NCBI RefSeq assembly: GCF_003334315.1
Contig: NZ_QOWR01000039.1
Origin: Escherichia coli
GTDB lineage: Bacteria; Pseudomonadota; Gammaproteobacteria; Enterobacterales; Enterobacteriaceae
Strand: one strand, 5' to 3'
Length of the DNA: 44,728 bases
The position numbers and the translations under genes were made by a program. The notes under the pieces were generated by a model. It did not search any database and was not told where the DNA came from. It saw only the letters and a program-made list of their open reading frames with translations. Positions 43,566-44,728 of the stretch are shown here, piece by piece (position 1 is the stretch's first letter; every line of letters starts with the position of its first letter).

Positions 43566-44728
43566 CTGCTTTTCTCACATTTGCAGATTTTAAAAAAGCA
43601 AACAAAAACCTCCGTACATGATGTACAGAACAATCTACCAGGTAGTGGCGTCAGAAAACCCCCGGGCCGCCTGCACTTTCCGGAATGCGCCGGTTATGAA
43701 AAACCGGAAATTCAGTCTCTGTTGTAAGATGTACCCTCTGATACTACGTTTTCTCTGTGTATTTAACTCACTGTATTTATTGTCTTTTTAAGCTTGACTG
43801 ATATTCTCCGGTCATAGTGTGCCGGATATACATCCCGTAAACTTCTCATTTTTATATAAAAATACCTGCACTCTCTTCAGCGCATCTGTCTCCTTTAAGT
43901 AAAAAATGTTTTCACGTATTGCTGTAAATTCATTTTAAATCAGTATATTACCTTGATATTGCTGTCTCCTGGTTTGATGCGTAATCGTTCTGCCTTTCTG
44001 GATGATTCTGGTGCTTCCGGGTGCATTCTCCTCTGCACATGCAACAGTTCGTCATCGCCACGCTCCCAAAAAGCATATAAAAACGAATCGAATTTGATAT
44101 TTTTTTCAATCGTTTTTCATAGGAATTTCGTAGGGTATTCTCCGCTATAACCTCCATATTTGCTGCCTTTTTCTCCATAAATCGTATGCAATATAGCCTG
44201 TCTGTCAAGACCTCTTCTCTGCTGTTGAGGAGACGATCTCATTTTTGGTCTTTTCCGGGAGAGAGGCTGTCAGATGAGCGAGCCGGATATACTGTCAGAG
44301 GTACACCCCGTAGCAGACCTGTGCTCCCATTTCCGCGATCCGGAACCAACAACACCCTACGGTTAATACCATTTGAAGCGTCAGGTACTGCAGGAAGTTC
44401 CCCCCTGCGCGGACATCGGTTCCTGCCGACATCTCACAATACGGCCAGACTGTCATGCAGTAACACCCGCATGCGGTCTGCGGTTTTAAGCGCACTCTCC
44501 CGTTTTCAGTGCACCGATAATGCGTCATAGTAAGTCTGGGGGAAGTTACGGAATGCCTGTTAAGTGGTGCCGTGGGTGGAGACAGCTTACTTTTCTACAG
44601 CAACTGCAGTCATTCAGGATGATCAGGAGATATTCTGTCAATGTCACGATCTAGACTGGCCCCCTGAATCTCCAGACAGTTGGTATCACTTAAGTTAGTG
44701 ATAGTCTTAATACTAGTTTTTAGACTAG

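Follow-up and report, generated by a model that had tools for sequence, protein, structure and literature searches.

The gene-free DNA at the end of the window, a 44,728-nt stretch of the Escherichia coli chromosome (NCBI RefSeq contig NZ_QOWR01000039.1) whose end falls within a CP4-44-like island, is largely ordinary, consisting of intergenic control DNA and insertion-sequence ends, with a small conserved core and an operator-like repeat that recurs across genera. We judge with modest confidence that the native part of this DNA (43554–44635, minus strand) is the cis-regulatory and 5′-leader region of a long island operon. A sequence-only reading had pointed out about 1.2 kb (43566–44728) without a convincing open reading frame (ORF) and had proposed that it could hold a small RNA, a degraded gene, or regulatory or attachment sequence. 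Among these options regulatory sequence is the best supported, by a constrained core, a promoter-like site, a cross-genus repeat, and a terminator-like hairpin.

The limits of the native DNA were set by its neighbors. Because RefSeq starts the adjacent uncharacterized minus-strand gene at the GTG at 43553 (42402–43553, within an ORF of 387 amino acids that spans 42402–43565), the gene-free DNA begins at 43554, and because homology to an IS21-family relic runs from 44636 onward, it ends at 44635. The last 93 nt of the window are the tip of that relic, interrupted by IS2. The outermost 16 nt of the relic, TGTCAATGTCACGATC (44636–44651), were assigned from RefSeq pseudogenes and from relic homology, which sets in exactly at the TGTCAA at 44636 when an independent relic of the IS21 family, found in an unrelated context, is aligned. 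If a genome is free of IS2 at this place, the relic tip runs on into a C-terminal pseudogene of istB (AAA ATPase) and an istA fragment; in the window strain, IS2 sits 16 nt inside the tip. The remaining 77 nt (44652–44728, plus strand) were identified by BLAST and by comparison with locus L002 as the left end of IS2, comprising the terminal inverted repeat and leader and cut by the window end, with the transposase of this copy lying beyond it. They show eight differences in 77 nt from the sequence directly before the IS2 transposase in L002 (XJW9B277) and bring thousands of additional places into the BLAST result. The match is thus to the termini of IS2 (IS3 family) and of IS21-family relics, for which sister genomes carry the transposase or the istB fragment, but the ends alone are within the window and account for 8% of the finding. 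An IS21 origin of the entire stretch was rejected, as IS homology ends at 44636. IS2 has entered this neighborhood independently in two strains, within ~90 nt of each other (window 44651/44652; L002:6176–7506); the second copy, in NZ_CP068041, lies within the istB relic and is flanked by a duplicated TTTTG target.

On the minus strand, the gene-free DNA is followed by the uncharacterized gene, by a gene for a YeeP-like GTPase (41446–42357), and, left of the latter, by a gene for a dynamin-like protein of 798 amino acids. The operon encodes the 383–387-amino-acid protein, the YeeP-like GTPase, and dynamin-like proteins, and in related islands it also includes Ag43 and CbtA/CbeA. Searches of Pfam, NCBIfam, and the PDB returned no relative of the 387-amino-acid protein. 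Its family is narrow (27 database matches), no members were found in the viral contigs scanned, its Pro/Thr-rich middle is hypervariable, and its gene has a dN/dS of ~0.5–0.6 against the most distant E. coli alleles. The AlphaFold model of the protein (pLDDT 57) was too poor for a structure search; in this model, the end of the conserved C-terminal half seems to resemble a strand-helix-helix, and a ribbon-helix-helix fold at the C-terminus is only a guess. In one E. coli lineage (L005:4782–6136; L015:3001–4354), ~940 nt of the gene are gone and a C-terminal pseudogene is left, and the whole upstream gene-free region is retained, now beside an iron-uptake cargo module.

The distribution of the gene-free region was examined by BLAST with 63-nt and whole-region queries. 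Positions 43566–44651 were found at ≥80% coverage in 2,088 of 5,426 complete E. coli genomes, usually as a single copy per genome and in up to four copies, so that ~39% of complete E. coli genomes carry this ~1.1-kb stretch in their accessory DNA, where it ranks among the larger blocks left unannotated. The plasmid collection gave 3 matches and the phage collection none. In E. coli carriers, the region always lies between the IS21 relic and the 383–387-amino-acid gene, and the island order is an AlpA-like protein of 68 amino acids (PF05930), a 200-amino-acid protein, the IS21 relic, the gene-free region, a 372–392-amino-acid gene, and variable cargo; the AlpA-like gene is ~2–4 kb upstream in sister islands, past the end of the window. 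Distant members of the protein family (27–32% identity; Citrobacter koseri, Cronobacter sakazakii, and others) are located in islands of a different layout, in which (L011, L012, L018, L019 [6290–7001]) an alpA and 197-amino-acid pair is divergent from a 364–372-amino-acid gene across an intergenic gap of only ~500 nt. The E. coli-type alpA module (e.g., in L008, L014, L016) has ~67% DNA identity to that of the distant type and is inverted, and E. coli-type islands carry an IS21-family relic at the inversion junction and ~400 extra nt between the repeat motif described below and the gene. Since the alpA module is inverted with an IS relic at the junction, the E. coli arrangement is a rearranged form, which suggests that an old IS-associated inversion produced the E. 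coli layout. Comparison with CP4-57 of K-12 was uninformative, as the repeat motif is absent there and AlpA is only 25% identical. The proposal of an attachment sequence found no support, since the stretch lies inside the island backbone and not at its edge, and a search revealed no tRNA or tmRNA in 30000–44728 and no matching direct repeats; a search for iterons or long inverted repeats, as would mark an origin of replication or transfer, gave short two-copy matches only.

Conservation is uneven along the stretch. The dead IS21 relic was used as a neutral yardstick in a comparison of the window type with five divergent lineages. Relative to the window type, identity is 76–85% in the relic, 77–87% in 44301–44651, and 93–96% in a conserved core of 324 nt (43977–44300); it is 84–98% in the unevenly conserved, AT-rich middle of the leader (43700–43976, minus strand) and 80–95% in 43554–43699. 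Substitution in the core is 2–6 times slower than in the adjacent relic, the difference being significant in five of five lineages (Fisher p 6e-4 to 2e-12), and core mismatches of 4–7% compare with a dS of 0.24–0.26 for the adjacent 383–387-amino-acid gene in the two most distant lineages. The core is under nucleotide-level constraint. The distal spacer (44301–44635) evolves at the pace of the IS relic, carries a 43-nt and a 19-nt indel, and is probably unconstrained and drifting. Identity is mosaic along the locus, which indicates that recombination contributes to the conservation pattern, and because the five lineages are E. coli islands with such mosaic recombination, the slow change seen in the core could be due in part to exchange and not to selection; the core boundaries are nevertheless identical in all five lineages.

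These observations bear on the possibility that the region is functionless debris of the rearrangement and IS21 insertion by which the alpA module was inverted, and that it looks conserved through recent ancestry and recombinational exchange. Such an origin would fit the distal third, which behaves exactly as a dead IS relic, as well as the mosaic identity, the location at an inversion junction that bears IS relics and has been hit by IS2 more than once, and the one lineage that retains the region without the downstream gene. We nonetheless consider it unlikely, as debris would not explain why the core outlasts the relic in five separate lineages, nor why the repeat motif persists in the islands of other genera amid unalignable surroundings.

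That motif is an operator-like direct repeat, ACCCTACGAAATTCCTATG (44136–44118, minus strand), in which CTACG and CTATG are placed 11 bp apart and are followed by CGATTGAA. It is present once per island locus examined, always at the same position, and no extra copies were found elsewhere in E. coli genomes. L011, L012, L018, L019, and L024, in which the orthologous protein has only 27–32% identity, also have the repeat upstream of the gene for that protein; there the motif takes the form TA(C/G)CCTACGAATTnnCTA(C/T)G and lies, with its orientation kept, 140–156 nt before the start codon. It is the sole alignable intergenic sequence held in common with the Citrobacter/Cronobacter-type islands, with its side and orientation kept, and in this sense the motif is conserved across genera. 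Taken by itself, the nhmmer result is weak (E ~0.2); the 18-nt pattern is expected about once per 10^8–10^9 nt and is nonetheless found at the orthologous place. A metagenome scan for the distant-type motif yielded one true homologue (L024) and 11 other matches, the number expected by chance. A second, inverted copy of ACCCTACG at 44354–44361 was attributed to chance since it is not conserved in other variants. The motif pattern also led to an environmental metagenome contig (AUXO017150731.1; L023:95–300) on which CCTACGAATT-like repeats, at least five in number and facing both ways, form an array that adjoins an ORF that looks integrase-like by sequence; this locus was found via the motif pattern only and is otherwise unrelated to the island.

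The best sigma-70 match, which we refer to as P1 (TTGACA-16-TACGAT; 44208–44181, minus strand), falls within the core and faces the 383–387-amino-acid gene. It agrees with 10 of 12 consensus positions, and its position-weight score of 12.9 is the highest on either strand, with the runner-up on the minus strand at 8.9. The hexamers of P1 are invariant, four spacer positions vary among the variants, and, with a spacing inside the 16–18 nt range, P1 is a predicted sigma-70 promoter by consensus match. In E. coli, the direct repeat is ~45 nt downstream of the −10 hexamer of P1. In the distant islands, the motif instead precedes, by ~25 nt, the −35 hexamer of a weak promoter at a conserved position, whose −10 hexamer ends 74–76 nt past the motif start, a placing that would be typical of an activator. 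As the strong promoter match is thus upstream of the motif in E. coli and the candidate promoter downstream of it in the relatives, either the role of the motif may differ between them or P1 may be fortuitous. The core further contains a block of 42 nt, AACTGTTGCATGTGCAGAGGAGAATGCACCCGGAAGCACCAG (44008–44049, minus strand), that is identical in eight of eight non-redundant variants; it could form a 5-bp hairpin with a GAGGAGAA loop, a fold that does not surpass shuffles (z = −1.05) and in which covariation is impossible. A 20-mer from this block that was searched against 100,044 species representatives gave a chance match only.

The proximal leader contains a terminator-like element, T3 (43592–43630, minus strand), made up of a 9-bp hairpin (43630–43610) with a 3-nt loop and then GUUUUUGUUUGCUUUUUU. 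The calculated fold has an energy of −12.8 kcal/mol (z = −3.6), which 0 of 200 shuffles equal in stability, and the stem is retained in all variants, including those with a U-G to C-G change (L010) or an A-U to G-U change (L008). With a stable hairpin and a U-run on the transcribed strand, T3 is a predicted intrinsic terminator; it ends ~40 nt before the start codon and is on the strand of the gene. Promoter-like and terminator-like signals are both present in the orientation of the gene; neither kind of site is more numerous in the region than shuffling predicts. The last ~40 nt of the leader (43554–43591, minus strand) carry a Shine-Dalgarno-like GAGG 6 nt before the GTG at 43553, and promoter scoring revealed no match, strong or weak, that would fit between T3 and the start codon. 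No T3-like hairpin was found in the distant relatives, and since T3 and the ~400 extra leader nt are absent from them, these do not constitute a family-wide feature. A weak second hairpin (43867–43884, minus strand) has an invariant stem and a variable loop with a z of only −1.8; both it and a hairpin at ~44070–44113 were rejected as terminators, being no better than shuffles. Relative to sister islands, two tandem-duplication polymorphisms occur in the leader, one of 9 nt at 43611 (ATGTACAGA) in which the hairpin of the terminator has its left arm copied, the other of 6 nt at 43746 (CGTTTT), and neither breaks the T3 stem. No RfaH ops element (GGCGGTAGnnTG) with one mismatch or fewer is present in 43554–44728.

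The same signals could belong to a stand-alone non-coding RNA of ~580 nt extending from P1 to T3, or to a shorter one ending at T3 or at the 43867–43884 hairpin, which would act as a regulator in its own right and not just as a leader, in line with the small RNA that the sequence-only reading had proposed. Islands of E. coli commonly encode regulatory RNAs, some of them arising from early termination before antiterminated operons (PMC5286369, PMC8565820), and the orientation of P1 and T3 as well as a core constrained at the nucleotide rather than the amino-acid level would fit such an RNA; a transcript ending at the 43592–43630 terminator is plausible. As an account of the region, however, we hold an independent RNA to be improbable. 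An Rfam cmscan that covered both strands of 42000–44728 under permissive filters returned 0 matches at E ≤ 1, and in 150-nt windows on both strands the folding z ranges from +1.7 to −2.6, T3 alone standing out. The base-pair changes are one-sided, from wobble to Watson-Crick pairs, and no double compensatory changes were seen among variants whose close similarity leaves too little for covariation to show. There is no decent promoter within 300 nt upstream of T3, and the motif common to the distant relatives sits upstream of their candidate promoter and would thus be untranscribed there. Esr41, the best-known small RNA of enterohemorrhagic E. coli islands, was rejected as a candidate since it belongs to another island, O-island 43/48, where its position is between z1181 and z1182, and a literature search with four of the element's sequences on both strands found no paper.

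The native DNA from 43554 to 44635 is not a gene. In the ORF listing, no ORF between 43566 and the window end is longer than 114 amino acids (44186–44530, plus strand), and this is followed by ORFs of 86 (43948–44208, minus strand), 77, 65, and 57 amino acids, as the description of short overlapping ORFs had stated. RefSeq/PGAP has nothing annotated under the stretch in nearly all of the ~2,090 E. coli genomes carrying it, and the rare "hypothetical protein" there is a neighbor gene that overlaps the query by a few bases or a 79-amino-acid call in one lineage. No matches were obtained in NCBIfam for ten stop-to-stop segments of at least 35 amino acids from the six frames or in PHROGs for eight such segments, and a concatenate of eleven six-frame segments matched nothing at E ≤ 0.01 among 5.8 billion proteins; together with BLAST, these searches uncovered no ordinary annotated gene that had been missed. 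The survival of the ORFs was followed in an alignment of eleven copies (the window and 10 sister islands), eight of which are non-redundant. Every ORF of more than 41 codons is interrupted by a frameshift or stop across the sister islands, and the ORFs of 76–86, 65, 57, and 30 amino acids carry frameshifts or stops in several lineages. Two ORFs, of 41 and 34 codons, are open in all 11 sequences, and their substitutions are almost all non-synonymous; synonymous changes are missing from their invariant halves too, a pattern that suggests constraint at the nucleotide level and not at the protein level. With all ORFs either broken or changing at the amino-acid level only, and with negative protein searches, the observation that the DNA is gene-free is confirmed. 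A missed or degraded gene was rejected because none of the segments searched from the six frames of the native DNA showed protein homology; a degraded gene could be spoken of only trivially, for the insertion-sequence ends that make up the last 93 nt. Very small proteins, one or more, encoded by the 41-codon ORF (44242–44117, minus strand), by the 34-codon ORF (44044–43940, minus strand), or as the hydrophobic 20-residue peptide MYPLILRFLCVFNSLYLLSF (43732–43794 with its stop, plus strand), are highly unlikely, because, although both ORFs are open throughout and the peptide tolerates an in-frame 6-nt duplication, the substitution pattern of the two ORFs is that just described, the reading frame of the peptide is frameshifted or truncated in L003, L008, and L014, T-rich DNA gives such peptides by chance, and there are no family or database matches.

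If the region is a cis-regulatory and leader sequence, as we favor, P1 in the 324-nt core would drive transcription towards the 383–387-amino-acid gene, and the direct repeat at 44136–44118 would be bound by a DNA-binding protein that the island encodes, with the AlpA-like regulator, the neighboring 200-amino-acid protein, or the 383–387-amino-acid protein as candidate binders. Transcription would then cross a ~580-nt leader and reach the putative intrinsic terminator at 43630–43592. As this terminator would lie between P1 and the start codon, expression of the operon should depend on read-through, which may be achieved via attenuation or antitermination. We infer that the signals are used, that one of these proteins would recognize the motif, and that termination is under regulation. 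A more specific form of the leader reading, which we regard as doubtful, is a conditional-termination switch in which P1 would be constitutive, the RNA would stop at T3, and an island factor at CTACG-N6-CTAYG would permit read-through, the terminated leader perhaps being a regulatory RNA. The factor would most plausibly be the AlpA-like protein, acting as a processive antiterminator; that the operon thus read into would be the one with the GTPase, the dynamin-like protein, and toxin-antitoxin genes, from a leader that would have evolved in the E. coli form, is likewise a tentative proposition.

If the core, the repeat, and the terminator work in this manner, they would provide a handle on how CP4-44-like islands silence or switch on their cargo and would extend AlpA-type control beyond Pseudomonas. 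If they do not, the stretch should still be annotated as an intergenic leader followed by IS21 and IS2 ends, with no more searching for a missed gene.

Three known regulatory systems invite comparison. In Pseudomonas aeruginosa, a promoter is followed by a terminator and then by genes under the control of an AlpA-family antiterminator, the module consisting of the promoter PalpB, the terminator tB, and the genes alpBCDE, and AlpA loads at the promoter and carries RNA polymerase past the downstream terminator (PMC7969949, PMC9371919). The AlpA binding element, GGGACG-N5-GGTA, falls between the −35 and −10 hexamers of the target promoter (PMC7969949). The island resembles this module in having a PF05930 regulator a couple of kb upstream in its backbone and a predicted promoter with a predicted intrinsic terminator between it and the genes. 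The geometry differs, in that the island terminator is ~550 nt downstream of the promoter instead of a few tens of nt, the conserved repeat of the island is outside the promoter spacer, and the AlpA-like gene is beyond the window. The GGGACG-N5-GGTA element does not occur in the P1 spacer, GACAGGCTATATTGCA. With only 25% identity to AlpA of K-12, the island AlpA-like protein is distant from the characterized ones, and a different binding site is possible. Given the absent element, the different geometry, and this low identity, membership in the Pseudomonas AlpA system is not claimed from these sequence comparisons.

The late leader of lambdoid phages, PR′-tR′, is under the control of Q and in Stx phages gives rise to an early-terminated regulatory RNA. 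The island region would follow a like logic if a constitutive or semi-constitutive promoter produces a leader that ends at a terminator just before the operon, if read-through needs a factor encoded by the element, and if the terminated leader has a role of its own. The island has no Q-like gene, however, its leader is ~10 times longer, and there is no similarity to the phage leader by sequence or in Rfam. Excisionase-type winged-helix and ribbon-helix-helix regulators bind operators in which short direct repeats are spaced one helical turn apart. The repeat resembles such operators in its two CTAYG half-sites, which are 11 bp apart and unique in each island; its binder in the island is a candidate only, and the ribbon-helix-helix guess for the 383–387-amino-acid protein comes from a low-confidence model and finds no support in Pfam or the PDB.
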